From assembly GCA_044225365.1 (NCBI GenBank), contig JBGAIQ010000036.1:1-56686 (forward strand): a stretch of 56,686 nt of DNA, written 5' to 3'. Below, one piece after another: positions 33,961-56,686 of the stretch. The position numbers and the translations under genes were made by a program. The stretch's first letter is position 1, and each line of letters opens with the position of its first letter. The stretch comes from Planctomycetota bacterium (GTDB taxonomy: Bacteria; Planctomycetota; B15-G4; JADJEK01). The notes below the pieces were generated by a model. That model saw nothing but the letters and a program-made list of their open reading frames with translations. It was not told where the DNA came from and ran no database searches.

Positions 33961-34024
33961 GATGCGCGCGGGAGACTCGCGCCCGATTCGCCATCCTCCG
34001 ATCCACGACTTCCGGGAGAGTCCC

Positions 34025-37206: not shown

Positions 37207-38354
37207 GGACCGGCCTCCTTCATCCTCGTGTAGAAATCGAGCACGAGCCGCGCTTGTCCCGCGATGGAATAGAGTCGCTCCGCCCGCGATCGCGCCGCGA
37301 TCGAAAGCGCGCGGCGCCGATCATGCTCCGTCGCGATCGCGATGAGCGCCGTGGCAAATTCCTCGACTTCTTCGTTCGCCACGATCCCGCACTCTCCATC
37401 CCCCACGATCTCGGGAAGCGGCCCGCGCGGTGTCACGACGAGGGGAAGCCCCGCGGCGAGGAGTTCGCGCGCGGCGCGACAACTACCATCGCTGCCGGGA
37501 ACGAGGAAGATCGCCGCATCGAGGCCCGCGAGCGCGGATACGTAGGATTCACCCTCGCGGTAGCCCGCAAGTCTCACGGAACGCTCGAGCCGCAGACGCG
37601 CGATCGGTTGCTCCGCGACCTCTTCGATGTGGGTTCCGCGACCGATCACCACGAGCTTCGCGCGTGGACACTCCGCGACGACTCTCGCGAACGCCTCGAA
37701 GAGGAGGTCGTAGCGCCGGTGCCGCTGCACTCGCGCGACGATTCCGAATACGACGTCGTCGGCGGCGAAGCCGAATTCCGCGCGCAACGACTCGCGCAGG
37801 GGTGCGAGTCGCGGGATGGCGAATCGTTCGATGTCGACGGCCCCAGGCACGACGGCGAGTCGCTCCGCGGGAAGATCGGTACGACGACGCACCTCCGCCG
37901 CGGCGCTCTCGGACGCGGCGAGCACGCCGTCCGTGAGTCGCGAGAACGCGAGCGCGGTGCGGATCACGGGCGAGAGATCCGGTCCACCGTAGACCGTGCG
38001 GACGATGCGCGGTCGACTCGTCGACGAACGCGCGGCGGCCCCGAGCAGGAGATGATCGTTCATGAGATGGGCGTGGACGACGTCGTATCGACGCTCCGAC
38101 AGCAGATCGCGCAATCGCCGATAGTCACGCGCACCGTGCCATGGATCGAAGTGCTTGCGCAGTCGCAATCCATCGATCACCGCGAGTCCCGCGGCTTTCG
38201 CCGCGTTCTGCACCAAGTTCGCGAGGTCGGCATGCGGACACGCCCCGCACGCGAACTCGACCTCCGCGAGCGGCTGCAGCGCCGCCGCAAGGCGCACCGC
38301 CGGCTCGGCGGGGCCCGTCCACTTCCAGTTCGAGAAGGCGTGCAGGATCTTCAA
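37188..38354 (-). CDS. Glycosyltransferase family 4
   Basis: TTG overlaps the kinase stop; NWKWTGPAEP, VHAH, GIVAR, GSDGSCRAARELLAAGLP. Confidence 0.85.
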   Translation of the reverse strand: MKILHAFSNWKWTGPAEPAVRLAAALQPLAEVEFACGACPHADLANLVQNAAKAAGLAVIDGLRLRKHFDPWHGARDYRRLRDLLSERRYDVVHAHLMNDHLLLGAAARSSTSRPRIVRTVYGGPDLSPVIRTALAFSRLTDGVLAASESAAAEVRRRTDLPAERLAVVPGAVDIERFAIPRLAPLRESLRAEFGFAADDVVFGIVARVQRHRRYDLLFEAFARVVAECPRAKLVVIGRGTHIEEVAEQPIARLRLERSVRLAGYREGESYVSALAGLDAAIFLVPGSDGSCRAARELLAAGLPLVVTPRGPLPEIVGDGECGIVANEEVEEFATALIAIATEHDRRRALSIAARSRAERLYSIAGQARLVLDFYTRMKEAGPWRRGS

Positions 38355-40000
38355 TTCGCTCTTACGGGAATCGCTTTCGAAGGAACATCCGAGAGTCGCC
38401 GAGTCGATCGAGCCGCGGTGCGATCTCCGATCGCGCGCGCGGTCGAGACCCCGCCGAGCGCCCCAAACCGCTTCTTCAATCGCCGCAGGACGAGGAGCCG
38501 AAGGTAGAGCGGCGTCGACGGAGCGAGATCGTTCAGTTGCGCCAGTGCCTGGATCATGCGTTCGCGCGTAGGCTTCTTCAACCGCACTCCATCGAAGTCG
38601 CACAAAGTCGCGCGCGCAACGCCTTGCGCATCGACGGCGACGAGCACGTTCTTCGGCGAGAGATCGTTCACCTGCGCGTTCGCCGCGAACAGGTTCGCGA
38701 CGAGGTCGGCGACGGCACTCGCGACCCGTCGAGCCTCTGCCGAACGATCGTCGAGCGTCGCCGTCGAATACCGAAACGCGAGCACATGCAGAGGCACCGC
38801 GTCCTTCACCTCGTCGCAGATCAAGAACGAACGATCGGGCGTCTGGATCCAAGCGACGGGTCGCGGGATCGCCACGTCGCGAACGAAGAGCGCATTGGCC
38901 GCGCGCCACGCCCGCTTCCCGCGACCGCCCGTGACCCGTCCGCGCAACGAGCGAACTCCGTCGCTCAGGTACGCCTTCACGGCGTAATGATCGTCCCCCG
39001 CTTGTCCGATCGCGACCTCGGAGCGGCGCGACAGGGATCGCAGGAGCGGGCCACCCGACGCGATCTGCTCACGAGCGGCGGAGATCGCGGCGAACAGATC
39101 GATCTCGGAGACTTCGCGACGCCGAAATCCGCGACACCCACCCCGCGCGATCCGCGCGAAGGCGGAACTCTCGACGAGGCAGCGCCTCGCCCGCGAGCGG
39201 ATCCGCGCGCGCTCGCGCCGCGCGATCAAGGAACGCAGCGCGATGCGCGTACGGTCGGTCGCCGCGACGAACGAACCGCCCGTGAGGCGCGCGTATTCGT
39301 CGAGCGCGTACTCGCTGTCCGAGTCATCGAGCGCGTAGCGCAGCGTATGCAGCAGATCGGCGAGCGCTCGCAATCGTCGCTTTCGCGAGGGAACGCATTT
39401 CGCGACACGATGCAGATCGATGACGTGGAGTGCACCATCCGCAGCGACCAGGATATTCCCGCCATGGAAGTCGCGATGGTCGAATCCCGCACGGTGGATC
39501 GAGACGAGCAGTGAGATCGCGGCCGAGAGAATTGCGCGCTTCTCCTGGCTCTTGCCATCCCCGGGGGCGTGACGCCGCTCGAGGAAGGTGCCGAGGGGAG
39601 TCGCGTCGCGCAATGCGCGCGTGACGGCGAAGGCGAAGCCGCGCCCGACATCGACGAACGAGGCGATCGGCTCCGGGGTACGAACGCCTGCCGCGAGCAG
39701 TGCTCTCGCGATCGCGATCTCGTGCGCGGCCCGACTCGCCTTCACCCGCGCCGCAACGGATTCACGGAGCCCCACGATCCGATGGTGCTTCACGATCAGC
39801 GAACCGAGGACGGGATCGTCGAGCACGAACACGGTGCGCTTCGTGTTCTGCTTCAGGATGCGCGCGCCGTGCATGGCCGGTGCGAAGAGTCGGGCCGCGA
39901 CGGCTTCACGCGTCTTCACGTCCACGAGGAATCGCACGCCTGCGATCTCGGCGGCGGTCGGCCCGGTTCGTGGTTCCGTTCGCGACAATTCGCTGCGCAT
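38351..40000 (-). CDS. Tandem two-domain LPS core kinase (Kdo/WaaP/InaA family)
   Basis: Domain 1 has IVK...E...HRDFHGGNIL...IDL; domain 2 has AVK...VNDLSPKNVL...CDFDG...LAQLN. Confidence 0.82.
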   Translation of the reverse strand: MRSELSRTEPRTGPTAAEIAGVRFLVDVKTREAVAARLFAPAMHGARILKQNTKRTVFVLDDPVLGSLIVKHHRIVGLRESVAARVKASRAAHEIAIARALLAAGVRTPEPIASFVDVGRGFAFAVTRALRDATPLGTFLERRHAPGDGKSQEKRAILSAAISLLVSIHRAGFDHRDFHGGNILVAADGALHVIDLHRVAKCVPSRKRRLRALADLLHTLRYALDDSDSEYALDEYARLTGGSFVAATDRTRIALRSLIARRERARIRSRARRCLVESSAFARIARGGCRGFRRREVSEIDLFAAISAAREQIASGGPLLRSLSRRSEVAIGQAGDDHYAVKAYLSDGVRSLRGRVTGGRGKRAWRAANALFVRDVAIPRPVAWIQTPDRSFLICDEVKDAVPLHVLAFRYSTATLDDRSAEARRVASAVADLVANLFAANAQVNDLSPKNVLVAVDAQGVARATLCDFDGVRLKKPTRERMIQALAQLNDLAPSTPLYLRLLVLRRLKKRFGALGGVSTARAIGDRTAARSTRRLSDVPSKAIPVRAN

Positions 40001-40174
40001 CTCCTTGCTCGATCGGGCCCTCGAAGATTCTTGCGAGGTCGACGAGCGGTCGCGAGTGTACGGAATCGATCGCGCACCGAGCAACGAAGCTCCTCAAGAA
40101 CGGGGAACGGGAAACGCGGCTCTCGATTCACCACGACCCGGTCGATTCACGAGCGGAACCGTTACGATGGCGGC

Positions 40175-41326
40175 GTGACCGTGACTCGGCCCCTACGGAC
40201 CTTGCATCTCGACACCGAGCGCACCTGGCGCGGCGGGGAGCAGCAGGCTTTGCACCTCGCGTCCGGTCTCACGGCCCGCGGGCACGTGGCGGAGGTCGCG
40301 GGGATCGAAGGGGGCGAATTCGTCGAGCGTGCGCGGGCCTCGGGCCTCGTTGCCCACGCCGGCCCGTTGCGCGGCGAGCTCAATCCGCGGGCGATCGGCT
40401 TCGTACGGCAGCTCCTCGAGTCGCGCCGCTTCGACCTCCTGCATGCGCATACGGCTCACGCCCACACGATCGGGGCGATCGCGGCGCGCCTCGCGGGCCA
40501 CGTCCCGTGCATCGTCTCGCGTCGCGTCGACTTCGCGATCAAGCGCGGCTTCCTCGGAATCAACGCGATCAAGTACCGCCGCGGAGTGACGCGCTACATC
40601 GCGATCTCTCGGGCGGTTCGATCGGAGCTGCAGAAGATCGGCGTCAAGGACGACAAGATCGCGCTCGTCCCGAGCGGAATCGATCCGCGTCGTCACGCTC
40701 ACGCCGATCGGACGGTACTCGCTCGCGAATTCGGTGTGGGCGATAGAGAGATCGTCGTCGGCGCGGTCGGGCACTTCGCCTGGCACAAGGGTTTCGAGAG
40801 CCTGATCGACGCCGCGCCGGCGCTGCTCGCAAGACACGCGGACCTTCGGTTCGTCCTCCTCGGCGACGGCGAACTGCGCGGCGCGTTCGAAGAGCGGCTG
40901 CGACACAAGGGCGTCGCCGACCGTTTCGTCATGCCGGGCTTCCGCAACGACGTCGCGTCGTTCGTCGAGCGCTTCGACGTCTTCGTCGCGCCCTCCCTGC
41001 TCGAAGGCCTCAACACGTCGATCCTCGACGCGCTCGCGCTCGAACGCTCGATCGTCGCGTCGAACGTCGGGGGAATCCCCGAAGCGATCGAGCACGAGGT
41101 CAGCGGCCTCCTCGTGCGCCCGGGCGATGTCGCCGATCTCGTCGCCGCGATCGATCGGCTGCTGAACGATCGCGTTCTCGCGCAGCGGCTCGCCGCGCGC
41201 GGCAAGCAAGTGGCGTTCGAACGGTTCACCGCCGACGCCATGGTGGAAGGCACGCTCGCCGTCTATGCCGACGTGCTCGCGGCGAGTCGTTCGCGAACTC
41301 CTTCCGCTTCGGAGCGCCTGGTTTGA
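40175..41326 (+). CDS. Glycosyltransferase family 4
   Basis: HLDTERTWRGGEQQ, HAHT, SRRVDF, KGF, EGLNTSILDALA. Confidence 0.9.
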   Translation: MTVTRPLRTLHLDTERTWRGGEQQALHLASGLTARGHVAEVAGIEGGEFVERARASGLVAHAGPLRGELNPRAIGFVRQLLESRRFDLLHAHTAHAHTIGAIAARLAGHVPCIVSRRVDFAIKRGFLGINAIKYRRGVTRYIAISRAVRSELQKIGVKDDKIALVPSGIDPRRHAHADRTVLAREFGVGDREIVVGAVGHFAWHKGFESLIDAAPALLARHADLRFVLLGDGELRGAFEERLRHKGVADRFVMPGFRNDVASFVERFDVFVAPSLLEGLNTSILDALALERSIVASNVGGIPEAIEHEVSGLLVRPGDVADLVAAIDRLLNDRVLAQRLAARGKQVAFERFTADAMVEGTLAVYADVLAASRSRTPSASERLV

Positions 41327-43326
41327 ACGAAGATCCACTCGCCGGCCACATCGAAAGATGCCGCGCGTCGCAGCGTTCGTCGGGCGCGGTCTCGATCCGC
41401 GCGGTCGTCGCGATCGTGGCCGTGCTCCTCATCGTGGGATACGTAGTTCGTAGCTTGCTCGCGCCCGTGCCCCCTTTGCCCACTGACGGTGCAGGACTTC
41501 ACCGTGGCCCGTCGACCACGGACGAGGACGCGCGAACGAAGGGCTCCCGCTCCGATCCTTCCGTCGGAGGATCGACAAAGAAGGATTCGAGAACCGACGG
41601 CTCGACGACATCATCCGCGACGCGGACGACGACGCCGGATGCGACCTCGCCGAAGCCTCCCGGTTCGTTCGTCGTGGCCGATGGATCGCGACTCGAGGGT
41701 CGCATCGTCGATCACGACGGAGCGCCCCTTTCGGGCATTGCGATCCGACTGCTCGCCCTCGACGGCGTCCTCGTGAAGATCCCTCGCGACCTGCACCTCG
41801 AAACGGTCAGTGAGGATTCCGGGCACTTCTCGTTCCGCGAGTTGCCGGCTTCGCTCCCCCTCGCGCTCGAGGTCGACCGCGAAGGTTACGCCAAGGTGCT
41901 GCGCGAAATCGGCGTCTTCGATGTCGGCCGCGTCGTCAGCGACGTGGACATCGTCCTCGAACGCGGGATCATGCTCCGGGGCATCGTCCACGACGAGAGC
42001 AACCGTCCGATCGCGGGCGCTTCGATTCGCGTCGAACTCGCGAATTCGGCGGCGATCGCCGCGCCTTCGACCGGAGCGATGACGACGCAGAGCGATGCCG
42101 CCGGCCGCTACGAGATCCATGGACTCGGCCGCACGCTCTACCGGATCGCGGCAGAGCACGATGGTTTTGCTCCTTGCGTCGAAGTGCGCTCGCTCCTCGC
42201 CATCACTCTCAAACCCGAAGCGCATCAGGATCTCGTACTGCGATCGGCGAACGGTTCCGCGTCGGGCCGCGTCGTCGACGATGCCGAAGCACCCGTTGCG
42301 GACGTCGATCTGCGCGCGACCGCCGAGACACACGTCGTGACGACCCGTTCGGACGCAGAGGGTCGCTTCGAGCTGAACGGGCTCGCGGATCGTGACTACG
42401 AGATCGTACCGACGAAGGAAGGAACGCACGCGGTGGCCACCGCGCATGCGCGCCCCGGAATGAAGGACGTCGTGGTCCGTCTCGCGCGGAACGGGGGCCT
42501 TCACGGGCGAGCCGTGCGGAAGGACGGATCGATCCCGAGCGATCTCGTCGCGGAACTCCATCGCATCGAGAGCGGGGGCGAGAAGCTGATCTGCCGCTGC
42601 GAGACGAACGGCGGGGACTTCGCATTGCGGGACGTGGTTCCCGGCAAGTACAGCCTCGAATTCGGCGCGACCGGCGCGTGCCGCTCCCGCAGTCCGGAGT
42701 TCACGATCGCCTCGGGACAGGATCTCGATCTCGGAGTCGCGACGCTCGGCGACGGCGGCGACGTCCACCTGCGCGTACGCCTCGGCGATCGCGGATCGGA
42801 CCCGGCCCCCGACGGAATCGCCTGCGTGCTCGTCCCAGGGGATCTCGACCCGTCGAATCCGGAATGGCAGGGCCTCGCGATCTTCCAGGAGTCCGCGAAC
42901 CGCACTGTCACCGCGAGCGGCGAAGCGATCTTCCGTCACGTCGTTCCGGGCGCCTACACCCTCTTCGTGACGCCCGAGAAGGCGGCGGCGACGTGTGTGC
43001 GCTCGGTCCTTGTCCACGAGGGCGAGACGACGGACGCCGGCACCGTCCTGCTCTCCTCGGGCGGACGCCTCGTGGGTCGCGTCCTCGACGTGCAGGGGGC
43101 CAGTCTCGCCCGCGTGCGCGTGACCGCGTCGAGTGCGGATGCGGGGAGCGCCCCACTCACGACGCTCACCGACGGCGGTGGCTACTTCTCGTTCATCGGA
43201 TTGGCGGCGGGCGAGTATCGCGTGACGCTACCGAGTCAGGACGGCGTTCGGGGAACTCCGCGCGAAGCGAGCGGCACCGTGACCAAGGACGGAACGACCG
43301 TCATCGAAGTGCGAGTGTACCCCTGA
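41323..43326 (+). CDS. Membrane-anchored protein with multiple carboxypeptidase-regulatory-like domains
   Basis: N-terminal TM helix, Ser/Thr-rich linker, repeated GR[IV]VD..G.P...[ST]D..G.F...L units. Confidence 0.85.
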   Translation: MNEDPLAGHIERCRASQRSSGAVSIRAVVAIVAVLLIVGYVVRSLLAPVPPLPTDGAGLHRGPSTTDEDARTKGSRSDPSVGGSTKKDSRTDGSTTSSATRTTTPDATSPKPPGSFVVADGSRLEGRIVDHDGAPLSGIAIRLLALDGVLVKIPRDLHLETVSEDSGHFSFRELPASLPLALEVDREGYAKVLREIGVFDVGRVVSDVDIVLERGIMLRGIVHDESNRPIAGASIRVELANSAAIAAPSTGAMTTQSDAAGRYEIHGLGRTLYRIAAEHDGFAPCVEVRSLLAITLKPEAHQDLVLRSANGSASGRVVDDAEAPVADVDLRATAETHVVTTRSDAEGRFELNGLADRDYEIVPTKEGTHAVATAHARPGMKDVVVRLARNGGLHGRAVRKDGSIPSDLVAELHRIESGGEKLICRCETNGGDFALRDVVPGKYSLEFGATGACRSRSPEFTIASGQDLDLGVATLGDGGDVHLRVRLGDRGSDPAPDGIACVLVPGDLDPSNPEWQGLAIFQESANRTVTASGEAIFRHVVPGAYTLFVTPEKAAATCVRSVLVHEGETTDAGTVLLSSGGRLVGRVLDVQGASLARVRVTASSADAGSAPLTTLTDGGGYFSFIGLAAGEYRVTLPSQDGVRGTPREASGTVTKDGTTVIEVRVYP

Positions 43327-44090
43327 TGCGTGACTCGATCCGCATCGGCTCGGTCTTCGGAATCGAGATAAGGCTCCACGTCCTGTTCCTCGTCATCGTT
43401 CTCGGCTTCCCGGCGAACACCTGGTACTCGGACGGACTGCGCGCGGGCCTCGATCTCCTCGCGCGCTTCTGCCTCGTCTTCTCGTGCGTGCTCGTGCACG
43501 AACTCGGCCATTCCCTCGTCGCGATCCGTCACGGCGTGCGCGTGCGCGACATCCTGCTGTGGCCGCTCGGCGGCGTCGCCCGACTCGAGCGACTGCCCGA
43601 CTCGCCGCGAGCCGAGTTGCTCATCGCGGTCGCCGGACCGCTCGTCAATTTCACGATCCTCGCGCTCCTGACTCCGATCCTCCTGCTCCGCGAAGCGCCC
43701 TTCCCGTCGCAGGCGATGATCGACGGAGCCCCTACGCTCTTCGAGTGGTTCGTCCTCATCAACATCGCGATGGGCACCTTCAACCTGATCCCCGCATTCC
43801 CGCTCGATGGAGGCCGCGTCCTGCGAGCTTTCCTCTCCCCGCGATTCGGCATCGTGAAGGCAACTTGCGCGGCCGTGGTGACGGGCCGCCTGCTCGCGGT
43901 CGTCGCGGTGGTCGCCGCTCTCAGCGATATCGAACTCGTATCGCTAGGACTCCTCGGTGCGTTCGTCTGGATCTTTGGTGGGCTCGAGCTCCGCGCAACG
44001 ATGCTCCGCACGCACGCGACCGCGTGGGGAGCCAGGAGGCTCTCGACCGGAGACATCACCGTTCCGATCTGGAAGAATGTCGCTCCATGA
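43326..44090 (+). CDS. Site-2 protease, M50 family
   Basis: HELGH, LWPLGGVA, AGPLVN, FNLIPAFPLDGGR. Confidence 0.92.
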   Translation: MRDSIRIGSVFGIEIRLHVLFLVIVLGFPANTWYSDGLRAGLDLLARFCLVFSCVLVHELGHSLVAIRHGVRVRDILLWPLGGVARLERLPDSPRAELLIAVAGPLVNFTILALLTPILLLREAPFPSQAMIDGAPTLFEWFVLINIAMGTFNLIPAFPLDGGRVLRAFLSPRFGIVKATCAAVVTGRLLAVVAVVAALSDIELVSLGLLGAFVWIFGGLELRATMLRTHATAWGARRLSTGDITVPIWKNVAP

Positions 44091-45040
44091 GTTCGCCGAG
44101 CCCGACGTCCGCCGATCGCAAGAAGGTCCTACGAGCAGCGGTCGGAGTGCTCCTACGGCTCAGCGCGATCTACGCGATCGTCCAGATCTCGACCGTGGTC
44201 GTGCTCGTTTTCGACGCACGCCGCAGCGACGTCCCCATGCCGCAGGAATTGCGAGCGCTCGCCTCCTCGAATGGCGGGTTCGATCACGTCGTCTTCCATG
44301 CTTCCGATGGGGTCCTGCTTCGCGGAGAGCTCCTTGGACAGAAGCTCTCTCGACCCACCGTCGTCTTCGGTCACAGCTATCGAGCTCGGCGGCGCCAAGG
44401 CGACGCGCTCGCCGTCGACCTCCTCAATCGTGGATACGCCGTCCTGCTGTTCGATTTCCGCGGCTGCGGCGCGAGCGACGGGACGTTCACTACCGTGGGC
44501 GGACGCGAGGATCGCGACGTGGTTGGCGCGATTCGCTTTCTCGAGGGACGCGGCGTCTCGCGCCAACGGGTCGCGTTCGTCGGCTGCTCGATGGGCGCGG
44601 TTGCCGCGCTGCAAGGCGCGCACGAGCTGAATGGTCTCGCCGCCGTGGTACTCGTCGCGCCCTACGCTCGAATGCTCGAGACGTTCGACGCGCGAACCCG
44701 CCACTTCGCCGGAATCCCGCTCACTCCGACTTTCGAACCCGCGCTGTGGCTCTACCGACTCGCAACGGGAGTCGATCCGAGCTCCGTGAACCCGATCGAC
44801 CGCATGCCCCAATTCGGCCAGGTCCCGGTCCTGCTGCTCGGCGGCGAGTTGGATTGGCGAGCGCCAGTCTCCGATCTCACGGCAATGTCCTCGCTCCGGC
44901 CGGACTCGACGGAAGTCGTCGTGATCGAACGCGCAGATCACTACGACCTCGGCGCCCTCACTCCCGACATCCGCACGCCGATCGTCGACTTCGTAACAGC
45001 TCACCTTCCTCCCGGAAAGCCCACGCCGGATCGCCACTGA
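44087..45040 (+). CDS. Alpha/beta hydrolase with N-terminal TM helix
   Basis: FDFRGCGAS, GCSMG nucleophile elbow, Asp in GELDW, His in ADHY. Confidence 0.88.
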   Translation: MSSPSPTSADRKKVLRAAVGVLLRLSAIYAIVQISTVVVLVFDARRSDVPMPQELRALASSNGGFDHVVFHASDGVLLRGELLGQKLSRPTVVFGHSYRARRRQGDALAVDLLNRGYAVLLFDFRGCGASDGTFTTVGGREDRDVVGAIRFLEGRGVSRQRVAFVGCSMGAVAALQGAHELNGLAAVVLVAPYARMLETFDARTRHFAGIPLTPTFEPALWLYRLATGVDPSSVNPIDRMPQFGQVPVLLLGGELDWRAPVSDLTAMSSLRPDSTEVVVIERADHYDLGALTPDIRTPIVDFVTAHLPPGKPTPDRH

Positions 45041-45056
45041 TCGCTCGCACCTGACC

Positions 45057-46457
45057 GGACCGCCGGGCTCTGCCCGGCATGATCTGGATCTGGACCGCCG
45101 GGCTCTGCCCGGCATCTTCTTGGAGCGAGCATGCCCAGCAACGACGGTGGAGGACTTCAGGAACGTGCCACCGTGGTTCGGACAGCACGTCGGGCGCGCA
45201 CGGGCGATCCTGCGCTCGCTCGCGCATGGGCGCTCGGCTCCGCTCCGGATCCCCCGAGCGCTTCTGTCCTTTCGAGGGGAACGTGAGTAGCAATCCACTT
45301 TGAAATGGATCGAAGAGCCATGGCGGTTGTGCCGCGGACGGCCCACCCTCCATGGCTTTCCCCACGTGTCTTCGCGACGAACCCTATGGGGTAGGTAGGA
45401 ACACGGTCACCGTGCGCGCCCGTAGCACGGTCCTCTTTGAAGGCGGCCCTTTTACCGTTCGGATATTGGACCGCCGGGCTCTGCCCGGCATCTTCCTCAA
45501 GAGCGTGCCGCCGCGGTTCGGACAGCACGTCGGGCGCGCACGGGGGATCCTGCGCTCGGCTTCGTCAGGACCGCCGGGCTCTGCCCGGCATCTTCCCTAG
45601 GCTGCCAAGTCGAGCACGACAGTCCAAGACTTCGCGAGCGTGCCACCGCGCATAGGATTGCGCCTCTGGTGCGCCCGACGCGATGTCCCATCCGCAAGCG
45701 TACGTTCCCGAAGTGGGCGGTCCGAAACAAGCGCCTACTGCTCGATGACCCCAAGCGGATGCCGGGCAGAGCCCGGCGGTCCGAGACTCACCAGGCACAC
45801 CTTCACGGAAAGATGCCGGGCTGAGCGCGGTCGTCCGATCCGAACGGTTAAAGGGCCGCCTTCAAGGCTCGCCGTGCTACGGGCGCGCGCAATTTCAAAG
45901 TGGGTTGCTACTACCGTTCCCCTAGAAGGGACAGAAGCGCTCGTGGGATCCGGAGCGGAGCCGAGCGCCCATGCGCGAGCGAGCGCAGGATCCCCCGTGC
46001 GCGCCCGACGTGCAGTCGTATCCACGGTGGTACGTTCCCGGAAAATATGCCGGGCAGAGCCCGGCGGTCCAATCGGACCTAGGGGTGGATCCCGGTATAA
46101 GGGCCGTTTTCAAAGATGACCGTGCTACTGGCGCGCACAGTGACCGTGGTCCTACCTACCCCATAAGGTTCGTCGCGAAGACACGTGGGGAAAGCCATGG
46201 AGGGTGGGCCGTCCGCGGCACAACCGCCATGGCTCCTCGATCCATTTCAAAGTGGGTTGCTACTACCGTTCCCCTCGAAGGGACAGAAGCGCTCGGGGGA
46301 TCCGGAGCGGAGCCGAGCGCCCATGCGCGAGCGAGCGCAGGATCCCCCGTGCGCGCCCGACGTGCAGTCCTATCCGCGATGGCGCGTTCCCGAAGAAGAT
46401 GCCGGGCAGAGCCCGGCGGTCCAGATCCAGATCATGCCGGGCAGAGCCCGGCGGTCC
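45057..46457. repeat. 1.4-kb modular inverted-repeat element (REP/REPIN-like cluster)
   Basis: 24-bp unit GGACCGCCGGGCTCTGCCCGGCAT forward at 45057, 45092, 45468, 45568 and reversed at 45759, 46047, 46399, 46434 (degenerate copy at 45813); perfect 65-bp terminal inverted repeats; inner inverted arms of about 290 bp. Confidence 0.93.
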
Positions 46458-46480
46458 GCGGTCGGGGACGGCGGGGTGGA

Positions 46481-48118
46481 TCAGCCCTTCACGACGAGTA
46501 CGCCGGGGAAGGCGTCGATGTCGTAGAGGATCGGGTGAGCCGGTTCGGGTTCGTACAGCTCGCGGCCGAATTCGGCGACGATCGCCATCGTGGCGCGCGA
46601 AGCGTCGGGAATCGGCCATGGGAAGATGGGCCGCATGACCGGTGCGATGTTCGTCGACATCATCCGCACGAGGACTTGCGGCTGGAATTCCTTCATCGCG
46701 AGCGCGAAGTCCGCGGCGTGCGCCCAGCGATGCGGAACCCCCACGGGCATTCGGGGCGGCGGGACGGCGTGGTTCCCGACCGCGAGGAGTCGAGTTCCGT
46801 TCGGCACCCGTTCCGCGATCCACGTCGCCGCGGCGATGCGCGGGTCTCGCTCCCACAGCGTGTTCACCGTGTACCCGCGCCACGCGACGGCGAGGACGCA
46901 ACCGAGGATCGCGATCGCGAGAAGTCGCGCCCGCGCTCCGCTCCTCCACAGCTCGTGCGCCGCACCGAGGCCGAGGAACAGCAGCGGAAGGAAGCAAGGC
47001 ACGAGGAACCGGGGATAGACGAACCCGCGCAGGAACAAGAAGACGAAGTGATACGCCGCGGCGGGCGCGAGCCATGCGACGAGCAGGTCCTTCCGCTTCC
47101 TCCACCCATAGATCCCGCCCGCGAGCATCAGGAGCGCGCCGCCGACTCCGCAAGAGCGATAGAAATACGTCAGGGTGTAGAGGACGAGCAGGAACGCGCC
47201 CTTCAGCGTCTTGGGATCCGCCATCTGATACTGCTCGACGACGGTCGAAGACGTACCGAAGCGCAGGTGACGAACGTACCCCGGAAGATCGAACACGAGG
47301 TCGGCCGCGAGCGCGTAGACGAGGACGAACGCGGCCCCCATCGCGAATCGAGCGCGCCACTCGAGGCGCGCCGGCGAACCCGAACGGACGGCGAAGAGGT
47401 CGAGCGCGAGCTGTGCGAGCGGAACGCACACGACGAACGCGAGGAACTGATCCTTGATCGCGCCCGCGATCGCGAGCGCGGCGCCGGCGAGGATCGCGGG
47501 CAGGAGCGTTCGCGCGCCCTGCGCGAACGCGAACGCCGCAAGACCGAGCAAGAGGAATGCGAACGCCGGCTCGTCGTTGTTCATCGTGTGACCGTAGTAC
47601 ACGAGGTAGGGCGAGAGGCCGGTGAGCAAGGCGGCGACCGGAGCGAGCGTCGCGCCGAACACGCGCCCCACGAGGAGCGCCGCGCCGAGCGACGCGAGCA
47701 CGTTGGCGAGTGCCGCCGCGAGCCGACCGGCGACGATGCAGTCGGAGATCGCATCGCGATGTACTTCCATGTCGCTCCACACGGAAGGATCGAATTGATT
47801 GGGCCAGGCCTGAGGCCCGCGCTCCCGGGCGAGAGCGAGCAGAGCAGCCGAGTGCTCGTCGCCCCGCATTGCGAGCGCGATGCGAGCGGGAATGCCGTAC
47901 CAGAGGTACGCGAGCGGCGTGTACTTGTCGACGTTCTCCGCGATCGGATCGGTGTAGCGCTCGAGGTATCCCAGCGCGCGAACGGGCGCGATCTCATCCT
48001 GGTGATAGCTGTAGTGACAGGGCAATCCGCGATGCAGTCCGCGCGTCGCCGAGAAGAGGACGAGCAGGAGTACGCCGAGCGTGAGGAGTGTCGCTGCTTT
48101 GGGGGTCGGACCGTTCAT
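46481..48118 (-). CDS. GT-C membrane glycosyltransferase (GT39/PMT/ArnT-like)
   Basis: GLP...HQDE loop, KYTPL, GRL, SPYLVYYGHTMNNDEP, IKDQ, YPRFLVP; multi-TM. Confidence 0.82.
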   Translation of the reverse strand: MNGPTPKAATLLTLGVLLLVLFSATRGLHRGLPCHYSYHQDEIAPVRALGYLERYTDPIAENVDKYTPLAYLWYGIPARIALAMRGDEHSAALLALARERGPQAWPNQFDPSVWSDMEVHRDAISDCIVAGRLAAALANVLASLGAALLVGRVFGATLAPVAALLTGLSPYLVYYGHTMNNDEPAFAFLLLGLAAFAFAQGARTLLPAILAGAALAIAGAIKDQFLAFVVCVPLAQLALDLFAVRSGSPARLEWRARFAMGAAFVLVYALAADLVFDLPGYVRHLRFGTSSTVVEQYQMADPKTLKGAFLLVLYTLTYFYRSCGVGGALLMLAGGIYGWRKRKDLLVAWLAPAAAYHFVFLFLRGFVYPRFLVPCFLPLLFLGLGAAHELWRSGARARLLAIAILGCVLAVAWRGYTVNTLWERDPRIAAATWIAERVPNGTRLLAVGNHAVPPPRMPVGVPHRWAHAADFALAMKEFQPQVLVRMMSTNIAPVMRPIFPWPIPDASRATMAIVAEFGRELYEPEPAHPILYDIDAFPGVLVVKG

Positions 48119-49419
48119 GCCGCCGCGCCCTCCCGTCGGACCGCGGGGGCCGCTCCGAACAAGCCGCACGCGACGAGCAATTCGATCACCAGGAAGCCGA
48201 TCGAATCGCGATAGTCGCCGCGACGATCCGCGAGGATCGTAAAGACGAGCAGACCCGTGAGCGAGAGCTTCGCCGTGAGGCCGTAGACTCCGAACCAGGC
48301 TCCGTGTTCGCTCGCAGGGGTCAGGCGACAGAGCCATTTGCGCGCCGAGCCGAGCACTCCACCGACTCCGATCGCACCGAAGATCACGAGCGCGCTCGCC
48401 GCGATCCAGCGCCAGGCCGCATAGCGGCCGTACACGACGAGGAGCGAGTCCGGAAGGAAACCGTGCCCATTCATCTCGATCAACACCTGCGGGACGAATA
48501 CGGCGACGAGGAACGAAATCGCTCCGGCGATCGTCACGGGCTTCGGCCCGATCCGGTCCCCGATGGCGCCCATTCCGATCGCCGCGGGAACTGCGGCGAT
48601 ATTGATCAGCAACATCGGCATGAACTTGTCGATTCCAAGACCCTTCTCGTCCTCGATGAACGGCACCATCATCTGGTAGGCCGCGTTCAGCGCGTCCGCG
48701 CACAGGAAGTTGCCGGCGAAGAAGAGCAGTAGTCCCTTGTCCCGGAGACACCGACGCAGCAGATCGTGCGTCGTGCGGAAATGACGCGCGATCGCATTTC
48801 GCGCGCCCGCCGCGACGTTCGTCTCCGCCGCCGGTTTGGGCTTCGGATCGGGGCAGAAGAACAGGAGCGGCATGGTGAAGAGCACGAAGAGGATCGCCGC
48901 GAGGACGAACGCCGGACGCGGATCCCCACCCGCGTACTTCACCACGAGAGCAGCGATCGGGAACGCGAACACGTTGCCGAGGTAACCAAGTCCGACGCCG
49001 AGGCCCGAGACGCGCGCCATGTCGCGGTCGGTCGAGACCGCGGGCAGCATCGCGTTGTAGAACCCGATCCCGGCGTTGTAGAAGAACAGCGCCAGGCTGT
49101 AGCACACGAGGACGGGCAATGCCGAACTCGGCAGGGCGAGCGCACAGCAGAACAACGCGCAGGCCAGGGTCGAGAGGAGCGTGTACCGCTTGGCGCGGCC
49201 CGTGCGATCGACGAGGACTCCGAGCGCCGGCGAGATCAGCGCGCCGACGATCATCGCGGGCGGCGTCGCCATCGCGTAGGGGGTCTTCAATCCGTGCGAG
49301 AGCCCGATCACGTAGTTCGGGAGATAGAGCGTGACCACGACCCCGTAGAAGATCGTGTTCGCGAAGTCGTAGAGCGCCCACGACCAGACCGGCAGGGAGA
49401 ACTCGCGCAGGAAACGCAT
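48115..49419 (-). CDS. MFS transporter, UMF1/Atg22-like family
   Basis: WSWALYDFANT, FYNAMLP, RVSGLG.GLGYLG, WFGVYGLTAK. Confidence 0.88.
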   Translation of the reverse strand: MRFLREFSLPVWSWALYDFANTIFYGVVVTLYLPNYVIGLSHGLKTPYAMATPPAMIVGALISPALGVLVDRTGRAKRYTLLSTLACALFCCALALPSSALPVLVCYSLALFFYNAGIGFYNAMLPAVSTDRDMARVSGLGVGLGYLGNVFAFPIAALVVKYAGGDPRPAFVLAAILFVLFTMPLLFFCPDPKPKPAAETNVAAGARNAIARHFRTTHDLLRRCLRDKGLLLFFAGNFLCADALNAAYQMMVPFIEDEKGLGIDKFMPMLLINIAAVPAAIGMGAIGDRIGPKPVTIAGAISFLVAVFVPQVLIEMNGHGFLPDSLLVVYGRYAAWRWIAASALVIFGAIGVGGVLGSARKWLCRLTPASEHGAWFGVYGLTAKLSLTGLLVFTILADRRGDYRDSIGFLVIELLVACGLFGAAPAVRREGAAA

Positions 49420-49606
49420 CGGGCGAGCAGCATAGGGCATCCTGGGAACGCAGAGGTGCAAGCTCGCGACATTCCGAGCGTCCGCCCTCGCAACGCGCCG
49501 CCCCACCGACGGCCCTCGAGCTCGCGCCTTTTGCGATCGCGACAAGGAGTCGCTACGGTGCCGCTCGAGACTCCGTCCCCATCTGCGATCCCTACCCCGG
49601 TGTGAG

Positions 49607-50977
49607 ATGACGTCGAACGTATCCGTCTCGCAATGGGTGGGCGATGCCGCCGACGCGATGTACGGGCCGTGGACGCTCGCGTTCTTCCTCGGCACCGGCG
49701 TCTTCCTCTCGATTCGGTACCGCGTCCCGCAGCTCACGAGATTGCCCGCCGCCTTTCGAGCGGCGTTCGCCTCGCCGGACGCGAGTCGCGCGAATGGCGG
49801 CGCGCTCTCGCCGTTCCAATCGTTCGCGACGGCCCTCGCGGCTTCGATCGGCACCGGGAACATCGCGGGCGTCGCGACCGCGATCGTCGCGGGCGGCCCC
49901 GGCGCGTTGTTCTGGATCTGGGCCTACGGCTTCGTGGCGACGACGATCAAGTTCACCGAAGCGACGCTCGGAGCGCGATTCCGCCGCGGCGGGAGCGACA
50001 CGCTCGAATGCGGCCCGATGCTGTACCTCGAGAAGGGCTTGAACTCGCGGTTCCTCGGCGTGGCCTACGCGATCACGGCGGGCTTCGCCGCGCTGCTGAC
50101 GACGCCGCTCGCGCAATCGAATTCGATCGCGGTCGTGTTCGAGAGCGAGTTCGGGATCTCGCCCCTCCATTGCGGAGTCGGCCTCTGCATCGGCGCCGCG
50201 GTCGTGGTGCTCGGCGGCGTGCGATCGGTCGGCCGCGCGGCGCAGGCGCTCTCGCCATTGAAGATCGTGCTCTATCTCGGAGGGGGAGCCGTCGTCCTCG
50301 CGACGTTCGCGAACCGATTGCCGGCCGCCTTTGCTTCGATCTTCGCCGGCGCGTTCTCGATGGAGTCCGTCGCTGGCGGCACGCTCGGCGTGGTGATGAT
50401 GGAAGCGATGCGCTACGGCGTGGCGCGCGGCATCTACGCGAACGAGGCGGGATACGGAAGCGCCGCGATCGCCTACGGCGCCGCGATCGGCAGCGAACCC
50501 GCGCGACAAGGCCTCGCCGCGATCATCGAGGTCTACGTCGTCTCGTTCCTCACTTCGTCGGTGAGTGGACTCTGCGTCATCGTCTCCGGCGCGGTCGCGG
50601 CAGGTCGGAACAGCACATCGGCGGTCGCCTACGGTTTCGATGCGGCGATGCCGGGCTACGGCGGCGCCATCGTCGCGATCGCAACACTGCTCTTCGGCTA
50701 CACGACGCTCGTCGGCTGGTCGTTCTTCGGTGAGCAGATCCTGATGCATCTGTTCGGGCGCCGCATCGCGATCCCGTATCGCCTGCTCTACTGCGCCCTC
50801 ATGATCGTCGGTGCGACCGGCGAAGTGACGACGATCTGGGCTTGGGGCGATCTGCTCAACGCTCTGCAGATCTTCCCGAATCTCATCGGTGTCCTCGGTC
50901 TCTCGGGCCTCGTCGCCCGGGATCTTCGACTCCTCGACTCACGGCAAGAGGAAGCGCAGGACGCGGAGCGTCGGTAG
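49607..50977 (+). CDS. Alanine/glycine:cation symporter (AGCS family)
   Basis: LSPFQS, IGTGNIAGVATAI..GGPGALFWIW, GPMLY, GVARGIYANEAG.GS, PNLIG. Confidence 0.93.
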   Translation: MTSNVSVSQWVGDAADAMYGPWTLAFFLGTGVFLSIRYRVPQLTRLPAAFRAAFASPDASRANGGALSPFQSFATALAASIGTGNIAGVATAIVAGGPGALFWIWAYGFVATTIKFTEATLGARFRRGGSDTLECGPMLYLEKGLNSRFLGVAYAITAGFAALLTTPLAQSNSIAVVFESEFGISPLHCGVGLCIGAAVVVLGGVRSVGRAAQALSPLKIVLYLGGGAVVLATFANRLPAAFASIFAGAFSMESVAGGTLGVVMMEAMRYGVARGIYANEAGYGSAAIAYGAAIGSEPARQGLAAIIEVYVVSFLTSSVSGLCVIVSGAVAAGRNSTSAVAYGFDAAMPGYGGAIVAIATLLFGYTTLVGWSFFGEQILMHLFGRRIAIPYRLLYCALMIVGATGEVTTIWAWGDLLNALQIFPNLIGVLGLSGLVARDLRLLDSRQEEAQDAERR

Positions 50978-53626
50978 CTCCACCGCGAACAGGTAGCGAC
51001 CGTCCTGGGATGCGCCGTAGACGTAGCGTGCGCCATCGACCTTGCCGCGGAGGCGCGTGTTGAAGAGGGCGTCGTCGGCCGTTCTCAGGAGATAGACGTC
51101 GTCTCCGCACACGAATACGACGTAGCTGCCGGCGGCGAGGATCTTCGGGCGGCGCACGGGCGTCGCGGAGAGATCGAGCATTCGACTCTCCGACGGCGTC
51201 TTCGAGAGGAAGGCGATCGAATCCGCCATACCGATGACGACCGTTCGATCCGCGGTCAGGGCCGCGCCCGCGAGCGGCCTCATCCATCGCCGGTCGGGCG
51301 TGCGATCGATTCGCTCGATCGTCTTCCCGGCCTCGTCGCGCAACGTCAACGCGCCCTCGGGTTCGAGCGCGTACACGGCCTTGCCGGAGTGCGCGTCGAG
51401 GATCGGTGACGGGATCGCGAGCACGCCGATGCGGCGCCCCTTCTCGTCGAACCGAAGGTAGCCCTCGCCATCCTCGAGCTCGGCGAGCACGCCGCCCGCT
51501 TCGTCGCTCTCGAGCACCGCGTTCGAGCGCGTTGCGACGATATCGTGCTCCTCGGCGTGCGCCACGAAGGCCTTCGATCCGTCGCGCAGGAAGACGTGGA
51601 TCGACTTGTTCGCGTCGTCGCGCACGAGGACTCGACCGTAGGCATCGATGAAGGCCCCGCCGGGCGCGTCGATCGCGCCGCCATCGGGCGCCGCGGCGAC
51701 CGTGCGCACGATCGCGCCCGCGCGGTCGAGGCGGAAGAACGCGCGGCCGTCGGTCGTCCAGATCGAATCATCGCTCGCGATCCAGGCATTGCGCGCCATC
51801 GGCTCCGCGCTCGCGTCGCCGCCCTCGCCGCTCTCCCCGCCCCCGCTACCGAGAACCGCGCGGCGAGGCGCCATCTTGGCGATCACCGTTCCCTCGGCGT
51901 CGAAGAGGACGAGCGGAGGATCGCCGTTGTAGTCGTAGACCAGGAAGTCGCCCTTCGGCCCGAACGACAACGCGGTGGGGAGACCGAGCGGTCGTTTTCC
52001 GCCATCGCTCGTGTCGACGAGATCGATCGTGCGAACGAGTGCGCCGTCGCTCCCGAAGATCTTGATGTCGTGCCGCGATTGCTCGAGCACCGCGAGTTCG
52101 CCCTTCTGCGTGAGCGCCAGGTCCTTCGCGCCGAACAGGAGCTTTCCGTCTTCGAACTTCTCGGCCACCTCGAATCGGCGCGAACCATCGGCGTTGACGA
52201 CGAGGAGAGAGACCGACGTCGTGAACTGCGTCGAGCGTTCGAGGAGCGCCGCGAATCCGCCGCCGAACTTTGGAGGCAGCGCGAGCAGCGCCGCGACCGA
52301 TGGATCGATTCCGACTTCCGCGAGGTCGGCCGGGAACGGCAAGGGCTGCGCGACGCCGGTCGTGCCCGAGAAGCGGACGAACGCGAGCTTCGCCGTCTCG
52401 TAGTCGCCGCGCAGCGCGACGAGGAAGTCGCCGTTCGCCGTCCGCGCGAACGCACGAGCCCGGCCCTCCGGCGCCTCCCCGAGGACGCGTTCGCGAACGA
52501 GGCGTCCCCCACCGTCGATCTCCTTCAGCACGAGTTCGCGCCGCTGCGTGCGATCGATCGCGAAGAACTCGCCGTTCGCCGAATCGAAGGTCAGGAGGTC
52601 GGTGAACAGGGAACGCGCCGCGATGTCGGGCTGCAGCACGAGCGCGCCGATCGCCTCGAGGTCGAGCACCGGGAGATCGAAGATCTCGGGATTGCGCGGC
52701 TGAAGGACGTGCGTGCCGCGCTCGACCTCCGTCACCGTGAAACCGCCCGGAGCCGTCGCGTCGGCCTTCACCTCGAACCGGACCTTGACCTTGTCCTTCG
52801 GGAACCAGAGGACGACGCGTCCGTTTCGTCCGCTGTCGACGATCGCTTCTCCGTCGTTCGCCCGCGCGACCCACTCCGCCGTCGCCTTCTCGTCGCCCGC
52901 GACGAGGTAGTCGCCGTTGCGCTCCTGCCTCCACACGACGCGCCCCTCCGAATCGAGGAGCACGAAGAATCCGGACGCTCCCTTGCCGTCTTCCTCCCGA
53001 TGCTCGACGAAAGCGAGGAGACGCAATGAGAGGTCGGGGAGCGTTCGCACGCGGGCGAGTCGCGGCGGCGCCTTCTTCGCGTCGAACTTCAGCAGGCTCG
53101 ACAGATCGAGATCCTTCTCGCGCTCTCCGCTCGAGATCCGGAACGTGTACCAGAACTCGCGGGCGCTCGAAGGGCCGTCGACGGCGATGCGCAGGAAACA
53201 GCGATCGAGGCCCGGTTCCGCGACGAGACCGAGCGGTTGCGGGAGGACATCTCCCTTCACCGCTCCCGGTTTTCGCGAGATGCGATGTTCCTTCACGATT
53301 CCGCCCGCGGGATCGAGGATCGCGACGACGATGTCGCCCGGCACACCGGAGACGTCGCCCTTCGGAAGGGCGTACCCGACACTGCGGCCCTCGTCGGTCA
53401 CGATCGCCCCAACGAAGGCGTACGGCAGGGTCTCGTCGAACGCGACTTTGCCGTCCTTGACGAGCCGCACCGCGGCTTCGCCCGCACCTTCGCGGTCCTT
53501 CGGATCGACGCGCAGGAAGGTCGTCGCCGCGGGCGACGGGTACGTCGCGGGGTCGAGGATCCTCGGAGGTGGATCGCCCTGCGGCGATTGCGCGAGCAGG
53601 AGAATCAACGGCAGGGCGAGCAACAT
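50939..53626 (-). CDS. Large secreted beta-propeller (NHL-like) protein
   Basis: Signal peptide MLLALPLILLLAQ; NHL-like blades (AKDLALTQKGELAVLE..RHDIKIF, PTALSFGPKGDFLVYD, PGGAFIDAYGRVLVRD..NKSIHVF). Confidence 0.72.
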   Translation of the reverse strand: MLLALPLILLLAQSPQGDPPPRILDPATYPSPAATTFLRVDPKDREGAGEAAVRLVKDGKVAFDETLPYAFVGAIVTDEGRSVGYALPKGDVSGVPGDIVVAILDPAGGIVKEHRISRKPGAVKGDVLPQPLGLVAEPGLDRCFLRIAVDGPSSAREFWYTFRISSGEREKDLDLSSLLKFDAKKAPPRLARVRTLPDLSLRLLAFVEHREEDGKGASGFFVLLDSEGRVVWRQERNGDYLVAGDEKATAEWVARANDGEAIVDSGRNGRVVLWFPKDKVKVRFEVKADATAPGGFTVTEVERGTHVLQPRNPEIFDLPVLDLEAIGALVLQPDIAARSLFTDLLTFDSANGEFFAIDRTQRRELVLKEIDGGGRLVRERVLGEAPEGRARAFARTANGDFLVALRGDYETAKLAFVRFSGTTGVAQPLPFPADLAEVGIDPSVAALLALPPKFGGGFAALLERSTQFTTSVSLLVVNADGSRRFEVAEKFEDGKLLFGAKDLALTQKGELAVLEQSRHDIKIFGSDGALVRTIDLVDTSDGGKRPLGLPTALSFGPKGDFLVYDYNGDPPLVLFDAEGTVIAKMAPRRAVLGSGGGESGEGGDASAEPMARNAWIASDDSIWTTDGRAFFRLDRAGAIVRTVAAAPDGGAIDAPGGAFIDAYGRVLVRDDANKSIHVFLRDGSKAFVAHAEEHDIVATRSNAVLESDEAGGVLAELEDGEGYLRFDEKGRRIGVLAIPSPILDAHSGKAVYALEPEGALTLRDEAGKTIERIDRTPDRRWMRPLAGAALTADRTVVIGMADSIAFLSKTPSESRMLDLSATPVRRPKILAAGSYVVFVCGDDVYLLRTADDALFNTRLRGKVDGARYVYGASQDGRYLFAVELPTLRVLRFLLP

Positions 53627-53655
53627 CACCGACTCCGATTCGTCGCGCCCGGCAA

Positions 53656-54366
53656 CTACGGCGGCGGGCGATCCGTGACCAGCGGGACGAACTGTACCGG
53701 AAAGAGCGAACGCCCCACCGCGGTTCCGTCGTGCTTCTCGTAGAGGAGAAGTTCCTGCTGTTCGACGCCGACCGGGATCACGAGGCGACCGCCGTCCGCG
53801 AGTTGGTCGATCAGCGGCTGCGGCAGGTCCTTCCCCGCCGCCGCGACGAGGATCGCGTCGAACGGCGCACCTTCGGGCAGGCCTTTCGCGCCGTCGCCGA
53901 GCACGCATGTGACGTTGCCGCACGAGAGCTCCGCGAGGATCGTCCGCGCTCGTTCGAAGTGCGCCGGGATTCGCTCGATCGTGAAAACCTCGCGCGCGAG
54001 TTCGCCGAGGATCGCCGCCTGATACCCCGAGCCGGTACCGACCTCGAGGACGCGCTCCTCGCCATTCAATCTCAGGACCTCGCTCATCACGGCGACGATG
54101 TACGGCTGCGAGATCGTCTGACCGCTTCCGATCGCGACGGCCTTGTCCGAATAGGCCTCGTCGATTCGATTGGGGGGCAGAAACCGGTGCCGCTCGACCT
54201 TCCTCATCGCGGCGAGTACGCGCGGATCTCGAATTCCGCGACGCTCGATCTGCTCCCGCACCATGCCCTCGCGCAGCGCTGCGAATCGATCGCTCTCGAA
54301 TGCGGCAAATCCCCGCGCGAGCGCGCGGTCACGAAACAATCGGCCGAAGCGCGACCTCCACGACAT
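53656..54366 (-). CDS. pcm: Protein-L-isoaspartate O-methyltransferase
   Basis: GQTISQP, VLEVGTGSGYQAA, GDG..G, APFDAI, QLADGGRLVIPVG, FVPL. Start uncertain. Confidence 0.94.
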   Translation of the reverse strand: MSWRSRFGRLFRDRALARGFAAFESDRFAALREGMVREQIERRGIRDPRVLAAMRKVERHRFLPPNRIDEAYSDKAVAIGSGQTISQPYIVAVMSEVLRLNGEERVLEVGTGSGYQAAILGELAREVFTIERIPAHFERARTILAELSCGNVTCVLGDGAKGLPEGAPFDAILVAAAGKDLPQPLIDQLADGGRLVIPVGVEQQELLLYEKHDGTAVGRSLFPVQFVPLVTDRPPP

Positions 54367-54379
54367 CCGTCACCTGCAT

Positions 54380-55799: not shown

Positions 55800-56686
<887 letters not shown>

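Follow-up and report, generated by a model that had tools for sequence, protein, structure and literature searches.

A 1.4-kb near-palindromic mosaic of hairpins and noncoding modules between convergent genes in a Planctomycetota bacterium

Mosaic arrays that combine short hairpins with longer modules have been described as a peculiarity of Neisseria, and the NIMEs that represent them are reported to be specific to that genus (PMC1797815). A second class of short extragenic hairpins, the REPs, consists of imperfect palindromes of 30-40 nt in which a stem mismatch and a 5' GTAG are both needed for binding by TnpA-REP; REPs are described as standing in inverted pairs across a short linker, reaching hundreds of copies per genome and flanking the RAYT gene (PMC3333891, PMC3337134), and tandem copies of the related BIMEs are described as homogeneous within a locus (PMC3333891). 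Palindromes can furthermore seed inverted duplications centred on themselves, and long ones are attacked by SbcCD (PMC3315005). Here we describe an intergenic locus that shares some features with these systems. It lies in the window, that is, the whole 56,686-nt contig JBGAIQ010000036.1 of a Planctomycetota bacterium (assembly GCA_044225365.1). We regard the element as a well-documented oddity and infer its function and mode of spread.

Two convergent genes, one for an alpha/beta-hydrolase-fold protein and one for a membrane glycosyltransferase, leave 1440 nt between their stops, and nearly all of this gap is occupied by one structure, which begins 16 nt past the stop of the plus-strand gene and ends 23 nt before that of the minus-strand gene (Table 1). 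The glycosyltransferase lies in a 966-aa ORF whose upstream part overlaps an MFS transporter gene (48115-49923) in a different frame. The whole element is a single collinear pseudo-palindrome of about 1.4 kb: it matches its own reverse complement at 73% over 1477 alignment columns, and when the left half is aligned globally to the reverse-complemented right half, the two stay collinear down to the centre near 45670. Three indels interrupt this alignment: the left half has 36 extra nt at 45119-45154 and lacks about 190 nt, and the right half has about 15 extra nt near 46074-46088. To our knowledge, kilobase-scale natural near-palindromes are unusual in bacterial chromosomes. The longest inverted repeat of the contig beyond the element measures 51 nt at 76% complementarity, Tandem Repeats Finder returned 0 arrays, and neither the hairpin unit, which we call R, nor the modules between its copies recur in the remaining ~55 kb of the 56.7-kb contig.

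Most of this architecture had been proposed in the original prediction, which was made from the letters alone, and that description stands. The perfect outer inverted repeats, given there as 65 nt, extend over 66 nt (45056-45121 / 46393-46458; 100% complementary in the repeat search), and each is, as claimed, a doublet of a 24-mer with a 35-nt period, its copies arranged head to tail (45057 and 45092 on the plus strand, 46399 and 46434 on the minus strand). The inner inverted copy is found at 45155-45457 / 46093-46395 (303 nt, 93% complementary, 21 mismatches), and the proposed split in orientation, forward on the left and reversed on the right, holds for 8 of 8 perfect copies of the 24-mer, four on each strand. 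The predicted folding into a hairpin is likewise borne out, with the single-stranded DNA of 45041-46480 giving one long fold-back at a minimum free energy of -724.5 kcal/mol, a value without a shuffle control at such length. The contig was also said to lack a transposase, and a Pfam scan of 36 ORF translations from the contig found no transposase, integrase, Cas or reverse-transcriptase domain and no enzyme able to copy the family.

Read in unit orientation, the left half consists of R, R, A-B-C, R, A-short, R and a degenerate A, and the right half of R, R, A-B-C, R, A-C (without B), a degenerate R, R and a degenerate A, where A, B and C denote the successive parts of the module. The B modules of the two arms differ at three positions only (45314, 45384 and 45401), and GGATCC (BamHI) sites occur within the A modules. 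The right inner unit matches other parts of the element both inverted (92% and 88%) and directly (94% over 180 nt), and the three A copies U1, U2 and U3 are pairwise about equally related (136, 135 and 140 of 147 positions identical). The likeness of the element's flanks to its inside is not significant: of 300 shuffles, 16 attain the score of the left flank and 228 that of the right, and we rejected the idea that the flanks are relics of further units.

Table 1. Features of the mirrored locus and its neighbours, with positions in the window.
Feature	Positions	Strand	Details
Alpha/beta-hydrolase-fold gene	43484..45040	+	Peptidase_S15 / Abhydrolase matches; stop 45038-45040
Whole pseudo-palindromic mosaic array	45056..46458		Symmetry centre near 45670; from self-match and left/right alignment
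Left outer R doublet	45057..45115	+	R 45057-45080 and 45092-45115; 11-nt linker GATCTGGATCT
36-nt stretch, left arm only	45119..45154	+	Gap in the arm-to-arm alignment
Left A-B-C module	45155..45464	+	A ~45157-45306, B ~45307-45413, C ~45414-45464; no Rfam match
R, A-short, R	45468..45591	+	A-short 45492-45567, only the 5' part of A; start-to-start spacing of R 100 nt
Diverged centre	45592..45758		Two degenerate 5' parts of A, one forward (45616-45677) and one reversed (45671-45714), meet here
Inner right R and degenerate R	45759..45836	-	R 45759-45782, degenerate R 45813-45836; repeat search
Right inner unit without B	45838..46070	-	C 45838-45888, A 45892-46038, R 46047-46070
Right A-B-C module	46093..46395	-	Inverted copy of the left module; 303 nt, 93%; 21 mismatches not 3-periodic
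67-aa ORF	46326..46526	+	Predicted protein P0004 from the same contig; protein database entry
Right outer R doublet	46399..46457	-	R 46399-46422 and 46434-46457
PMT_2 (GT39/83-like) membrane glycosyltransferase gene	46481..48100	-	PF13231; stop 46481-46483; start approximate; GC3 0.84

R is the 24-mer GGACCGCCGGGCTCTGCCCGGCAT. It has a perfect 7-bp GC stem and a 3-nt loop, its 5' flank is always GGACC, and CTTCYT follows it in most cases. Eight copies carry no mismatch (plus strand at 45057, 45092, 45468 and 45568; minus strand at 45759, 46047, 46399 and 46434), as against a mean of 0.00 in 100 dinucleotide shuffles, none of which reached eight, and the degenerate ninth copy on the minus strand (45813-45836) has 4 mismatches by our reading of the alignment. 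Neighbouring copies are spaced at 35, 376 and 100 nt in the left half and at 54, 234, 352 and 35 nt in the right, always head to tail, and the sole adjacent inverted pair is 45568 / 45759, which lies 167 nt apart at the centre. Within the array, R is the part under constraint: its eight non-degenerate copies are identical over all 24 nt, whereas the modules beside them differ by about 7% (rough binomial probability 6e-6, computed on copies that are not independent). R is probably also the site through which the family spreads, and the agent that copies the family would keep it unchanged.

As RNA, R forms a hairpin of -15.2 kcal/mol, and at both edges of the element its orientation agrees with that of the upstream gene. 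Each half-array is thereby co-oriented with the gene it follows, so that transcription arriving from either side would meet R as a hairpin with a U-rich tail. In a scan for hairpins followed by a T-tail, three of the nine R units pass and rank as the strongest matches in 40001-56686, and the second R of the left doublet together with its tail ATCTTCTT fits the terminator pattern; the tails of the other six are U-poor and fall short in their T-run. Terminator-like matches over the whole contig barely exceed those in shuffled sequence (15 versus 10.4 +/- 3.0, 12 versus 10.2 +/- 3.5 and 11 versus 6.7 +/- 2.1), suggesting that the organism may not rely on hairpin-plus-T-tail terminators. From its orientation and fold, R would act as an oriented terminator-like or 3'-end hairpin.

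The A-B-C module of about 300 nt has imperfect inverted ends of its own, 24 nt long and 79% complementary (45180-45203 / 45410-45433), which close a multi-hairpin fold (RNA fold z = -2.8 on the plus strand and -3.9 on the minus strand), and it also occurs in the variants A-short and A-C without B. MITEs are defined by terminal inverted repeats together with a target-site duplication; around this module, no flanking duplication was seen by eye. Set against a terminator role, four to five hairpins per side and modules of 300 nt far exceed what termination needs. The element is noncoding. Its four internal ORFs match 0 Pfam families and have a GC3 of 0.58-0.77, whereas the flanking gene reaches 0.84, the mismatches between the arms, 21 in all, split 6/9/6 over the codon phases, and the related proteins described below align to one unit in two to three different frames, which together rule out coding capacity. 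We read the ORF of P0004 as spurious: it would run through A', R' and R' and then antisense into the glycosyltransferase gene.

At the gathering score, the element matches no Rfam family in a search of the whole window, and at E <= 10 over 44900-46600 (1.7 kb) it gave 10 low matches (miRNA, CRISPR-DR and others), all far below their gathering scores. Over the window as a whole, Rfam reports two tRNAs only. A CRISPR array was rejected on the grounds of irregular spacings, of stretches between the repeats that are themselves repeated, of the lack of Cas domains and of a CRISPR-DR match of 16 bits compared with gathering scores of 39-42.

Using a loop-free pattern of R on 185,579 species-representative genomes, we obtained three singletons only, in a Micromonosporaceae MAG, a Bosea MAG and Krasilnikovia, all with other loops, without flank similarity and with nothing like the element beyond the hairpin; as a repeat, R was found in none of these genomes, which implies that the source genome lies outside this set. 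A blastn search of the 1440-nt gap against plasmid and phage collections gave no match, and a search of a collection of papers for the hairpin motif and its parts returned nothing relevant, its sole match being a 12-mer in one unrelated paper. Other loci were sought through the translations of long spurious ORFs, which are typical of GC-rich repeats. In a word-indexed search, the translation of 45971-46480 (plus strand) matched three NCBI proteins on contigs of 238,712, 144,260 and 157,094 nt, and an exhaustive search of 1.84 billion representatives (~15 billion proteins) yielded seven matches, comprising four family members on other contigs (P0001, P0002, P0003 and P0006), the window's own ORF (P0004) and two unrelated repeat proteins (P0005 and P0007), which we rejected as family members. 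P0006, on a contig of 11,060 nt, was recovered by a word-indexed second-frame query that gave two matches, and the forward-orientation ORF 45738-46109 (minus strand) used as a protein query gave 0 matches among 488 candidates.

The related proteins hold two units each, and their frame relative to the window switches within a unit. Their R-derived peptides are spaced at 121, 116, 32, 24 and 12 aa (about 363, 348, 96, 72 and 36 nt), and these distances mirror the R spacings of the window (352/376, 100 and 35 nt). As far as predicted proteins can be read back into DNA, a conserved grammar therefore underlies the full unit, the A-short unit and the head-to-tail doublet, which are not accidents of one locus. 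Throughout these proteins R appears in one orientation. In P0006 the Rs stand 32 aa (~96 nt) apart, the intervening stretch reads to us like the 5' part of A, and the peptide of the doublet linker differs. Where codon positions can be determined, the relatives share 71-81% identity with the window across everything that aligns, compared with 93-100% between the arms, and in the alignment conservation across loci is highest in B, C and the 3' part of A. At the P0003 locus the orientation of gene to R is probably as it is here, because the composition of its ORF tail, where 90% of residues allow codons starting with G or C, resembles that of the codon-aligned antisense frame of a genuine gene here (86%), with array-derived parts at 69-73%. 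Collectively, these predicted proteins indicate that the element belongs to a rare, dispersed mosaic repeat family whose modules lie head to tail at four other loci.

The reading that we favour, at a rough probability of one half, is that of a lineage-restricted noncoding mosaic array made of two opposed half-arrays, with recent copying within the locus and a terminator-like R. Its building blocks are the R hairpin and the A-B-C module of ~300 nt, joined head to tail by a family grammar of R-11 nt-R doublets, R-A-short-R units (~100 nt) and R-A-B-C-R units (~350 nt), and each of the two opposed half-arrays is co-oriented with the convergent gene that it follows. Since the halves resemble each other more closely than they resemble the other loci, they would be related by recent copying inside the locus. 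Such copying would have been either gene conversion from arm to arm or an inverted duplication, produced at the palindromic GGGCGCGC core of A by folding back or by a switch of template. The divergence of the arms is uneven, with 0% in the outer 66 nt, 7% in A-B-C and about 35-40% at the centre as estimated from the alignment; a single inverted duplication predicts uniform divergence and must therefore be supplemented by conversion or staggered growth. The locus would later have acquired three indels and decayed around its centre, which would lower hairpin and cruciform toxicity, a concept taken from PMC3315005. We infer that the mirror arose secondarily at this locus, and the copier of the family is probably a protein acting on folded single-stranded DNA.

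Two alternatives concern the origin of the mirror itself. It seems very improbable that the symmetry is an assembly artefact in which a read-through folded back into a chimera or two contigs ending in repeats were misjoined. The window is admittedly a complete contig of a draft assembly, and repeats and inverted repeats are prone to assembler error; however, the element is internal to the contig and has a different intact gene on either side, its modules are independently attested on four other contigs, its centre (45592-45758) is unique and offers no shared k-mer that could drive a misjoin, and its arms are imperfect (21 mismatches in 303 nt; indels of 36, ~15 and ~190 nt), whereas fold-back artefacts are near-perfect. 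There is accordingly a high probability that the mirrored element is real. Alternatively, with no duplication of the locus, each convergent gene could have gained its own array independently, both arrays drawing on the same source copies until they met head to head. That R tracks the upstream gene at both edges, and probably also at the P0003 locus, speaks for such growth, as does the star-like rather than mirror-paired relationship of the A copies U1-U3 (136, 135 and 140 of 147), and a common grammar alone would make the halves collinear. Yet the outer 66 nt are identical between the arms down to the non-R linker and flank bases, although the doublet linker differs in P0006, the B modules differ at only three positions, and the collinearity reaches into the diverged centre, so that we regard independent growth as unlikely.

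The remaining alternatives concern what the element is and how it spreads. The original prediction had placed R with the REPs and REPINs, read as single-stranded DNA by a RAYT (Y1 HUH) encoded elsewhere, and had taken the 1.4-kb palindrome for a giant REPIN-like hairpin or a REP-cargo system mobilised in trans. Its expectation that the 24-mer belongs to a repeat family at other loci proved right, given the four related predicted proteins on other contigs, and it agrees with R being a short GC hairpin, constant in its 5' flank and perfect in eight copies, with the ability of the entire element to fold back into one hairpin, with the REPIN-like inverted pair at the centre (R 45568 / R' 45759) and with the description of REPs and REPINs as intergenic and of RAYTs as single-copy and possibly far off (PMC3337134). 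The assignment to REPs and RAYTs itself is not supported. The stem of R is perfect and its foot is GGACC, whereas binding and cleavage by the E. coli TnpA-REP are described as needing a stem mismatch and GTAG (PMC3333891); neighbouring Rs stand head to tail, and 167 nt separate the one inverted pair of neighbours, compared with ~89 bp for a whole REPIN (PMC3337134). The family also looks sparse, with no other R in the remaining 55 kb of the contig, three singleton pattern matches, each with a different loop from that of R, among the 185,579 representative genomes and only four other family ORFs among ~15 billion proteins, and the 36 contig ORF translations contain no Y1 transposase domain. Nothing shows the 1.4-kb palindrome moving as one element, and the modules elsewhere are seen in one orientation only. 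We therefore treat a REP/RAYT origin as unlikely and the comparison as at best an analogy.

A noncoding RNA gene array is likewise a doubtful reading, in which each A-B-C of ~330 nt would be a structured RNA ended by an R terminator, possibly a guide-RNA-like scaffold on a protein-less IS200/IS605-type (PATE-like) element, with the arms as two convergent copies. It would account for the closed multi-hairpin fold of the module (z = -2.8 and -3.9), for the conservation of B, C and the 3' part of A across loci and for the position of R after C in terminator orientation, and the same-orientation hairpin bounds recall the ends of IS200/IS605 elements, whose PATEs are described as often encoding omega-RNAs (PMC10055086). 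Covariation over seven unit copies, a set partly recovered from related proteins by degenerate back-translation, gave 71 cells of which 13 were changed (4 compensatory, 1 G-U and 8 broken). The four double compensatory changes compare with 0-1 Watson-Crick double change in each slid control, the other double changes there being G-U or broken; however, 8 of the 13 changed cells break pairs, and the three copies in the window show double changes in only 2 of 99 pairs. Both strands moreover fold equally well, as in any DNA palindrome, the Rfam search of the 1.7-kb region finds no family, including at E <= 10, the ~10 nt from R to the conserved start of A leave no room for a separate promoter, and the contig has no tnpA, tnpB or iscB. 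A scan for sigma-70-like promoters gave 0 matches in the element, though it was powerless here (1 match in the whole contig, ~4 in shuffles). A more speculative combination, which we consider similarly doubtful, is a hairpin-bounded, protein-less fold-back element that would carry the 300-nt structured module as its functional cargo, such as a regulatory RNA or one like a guide RNA, and would be copied via folded single-stranded DNA by a trans-acting Y1 HUH or Ssn-like nuclease that reads R, with the mirrored arrays behind convergent genes serving as two-way transcription barriers.

If the enzyme that copies the noncoding mosaic array were found, RAYT and Ssn would be joined by a further hairpin-reading system, and the module, if transcribed, would add a new structured RNA. 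Among known systems, long palindromes resemble the element in that a mirror with a diverged centre looks like an interrupted palindrome; those described in PMC3315005 are engineered palindromes of 85-246 bp and chromosome-scale duplications in E. coli mutants, whereas here a natural near-palindrome of 1.4 kb stands in a wild genome. With the PATEs of IS200/IS605 the element shares R...R units bounded by same-orientation hairpins in each half, a feature that is not specific, and units without obvious terminal inverted repeats; PATEs can also carry structured RNA (PMC10055086). In contrast to PATEs, the contig has no tnpA/tnpB, no defined cleavage or target motifs and no omega-RNA match in Rfam, and neighbouring units share one hairpin, which is not the usual PATE form. 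What the element has in common with REPs, BIMEs and REPINs is a short extragenic hairpin, rich in GC and conserved in its 5' flank, that forms gene-distal intergenic clusters including linker motifs; tandem copies are homogeneous within a locus, and an effect on transcript 3' ends is possible (PMC3333891, PMC3337134). R nevertheless differs in being a 24-mer with a perfect 7-bp stem and GGACC in place of GTAG, which excludes the E. coli type only, as other REP classes may use other feet; its neighbours stand head to tail instead of forming REP/iREP pairs or REPINs of ~89 bp, the modules between its copies are far longer, and the family looks low-copy.

The closest architectural analogue is found in the NIME arrays, where dRS3/NTS hairpins flank RS modules: in both, oriented short hairpins separate longer noncoding modules in long intergenic arrays that lie by genes and vary in module number (PMC1797815, PMC11893778). 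The differences are that dRS3 has the form ATTCCC-N8-GGGAAT, to which R is unrelated in sequence, that the modules here measure ~75-330 nt compared with ~50-150 bp in NIMEs, and that the locus is mirrored, with no cognate recombinase or Ssn-type nuclease seen in the contig. The locus shows a NIME-like design principle in an unrelated GC-rich diderm, with a grammar conserved across loci. Its class, that of mosaic intergenic hairpin repeats, is a known one, and what is unusual here is the mirror form at kilobase scale.

Closer inspection of the two inner arms of the near-palindromic element revealed that 7 of their 21 mismatches are grouped where module A begins, within a stretch of 26 nt (45159-45184 versus 46366-46391). 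Across the five copies of this segment in an alignment (A2), read by eye, the differences are mostly transitions. At the right edge of the element lies a 67-aa ORF that the protein database carries as the contig's own prediction (P0004). This ORF is almost certainly spurious, because its frame runs through the reversed modules A', R' and R' and then enters the glycosyltransferase gene in antisense, at its 3' end. The glycosyltransferase itself falls within a composite 966-aa ORF, of which the PMT_2 gene probably occupies only about 46481-48100 (-); the upstream portion shares its DNA, in a different frame, with an MFS/ATG22-like transporter gene.

When scanning the whole window for sigma-70 consensus promoters, we observed 0, 0 and 1 matches against shuffle expectations of approximately 1.3, 1.6 and 1.1. 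Counts were thus at or below shuffle level and never higher, indicating that E. coli-type promoter scans are uninformative in this organism.

The window spans the entire contig (1-56686): the database entry for P0004 gives 56,686 nt as the length of its longest contig. The contig has a GC content of 66.3% and carries diderm markers, namely a Kdo/WaaP-family kinase and RuvC. The bVLRF1-domain gene directly adjoins an RNA methyltransferase gene. Repetition also occurs within coding sequence: the repeats of the 908-aa FG-GAP/VCBS protein constitute a 13-copy DNA family with a period of roughly 150 nt, and inverted-repeat matches connect this gene with that of the second FG-GAP protein. The two beta-sandwich repeat proteins are paralogous, and the second is encoded immediately upstream of the hydrolase gene that flanks the element.

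Positions of the contig features discussed in the text
Feature	Positions	Strand	Remark
FG-GAP/VCBS repeat protein	6293-9019	-	908 aa
bVLRF1 (Bacteroidetes VLRF1 release factor) domain gene	9020-9676	-	
RNA methyltransferase gene	9677-10555		
CarboxypepD_reg/SdrD-B-like beta-sandwich repeat protein	23384-25456	+	first paralogue
RuvC	32067-32654		diderm marker
Second FG-GAP protein	33545-35899		
Kdo/WaaP-family kinase	38351-40093		diderm marker
CarboxypepD_reg/SdrD-B-like beta-sandwich repeat protein	41323-43326	+	second paralogue
67-aa ORF (P0004)	46326-46526	+	
Composite 966-aa ORF	46481-49381	-	
MFS/ATG22-like transporter gene	48115-49923		GC3 0.85
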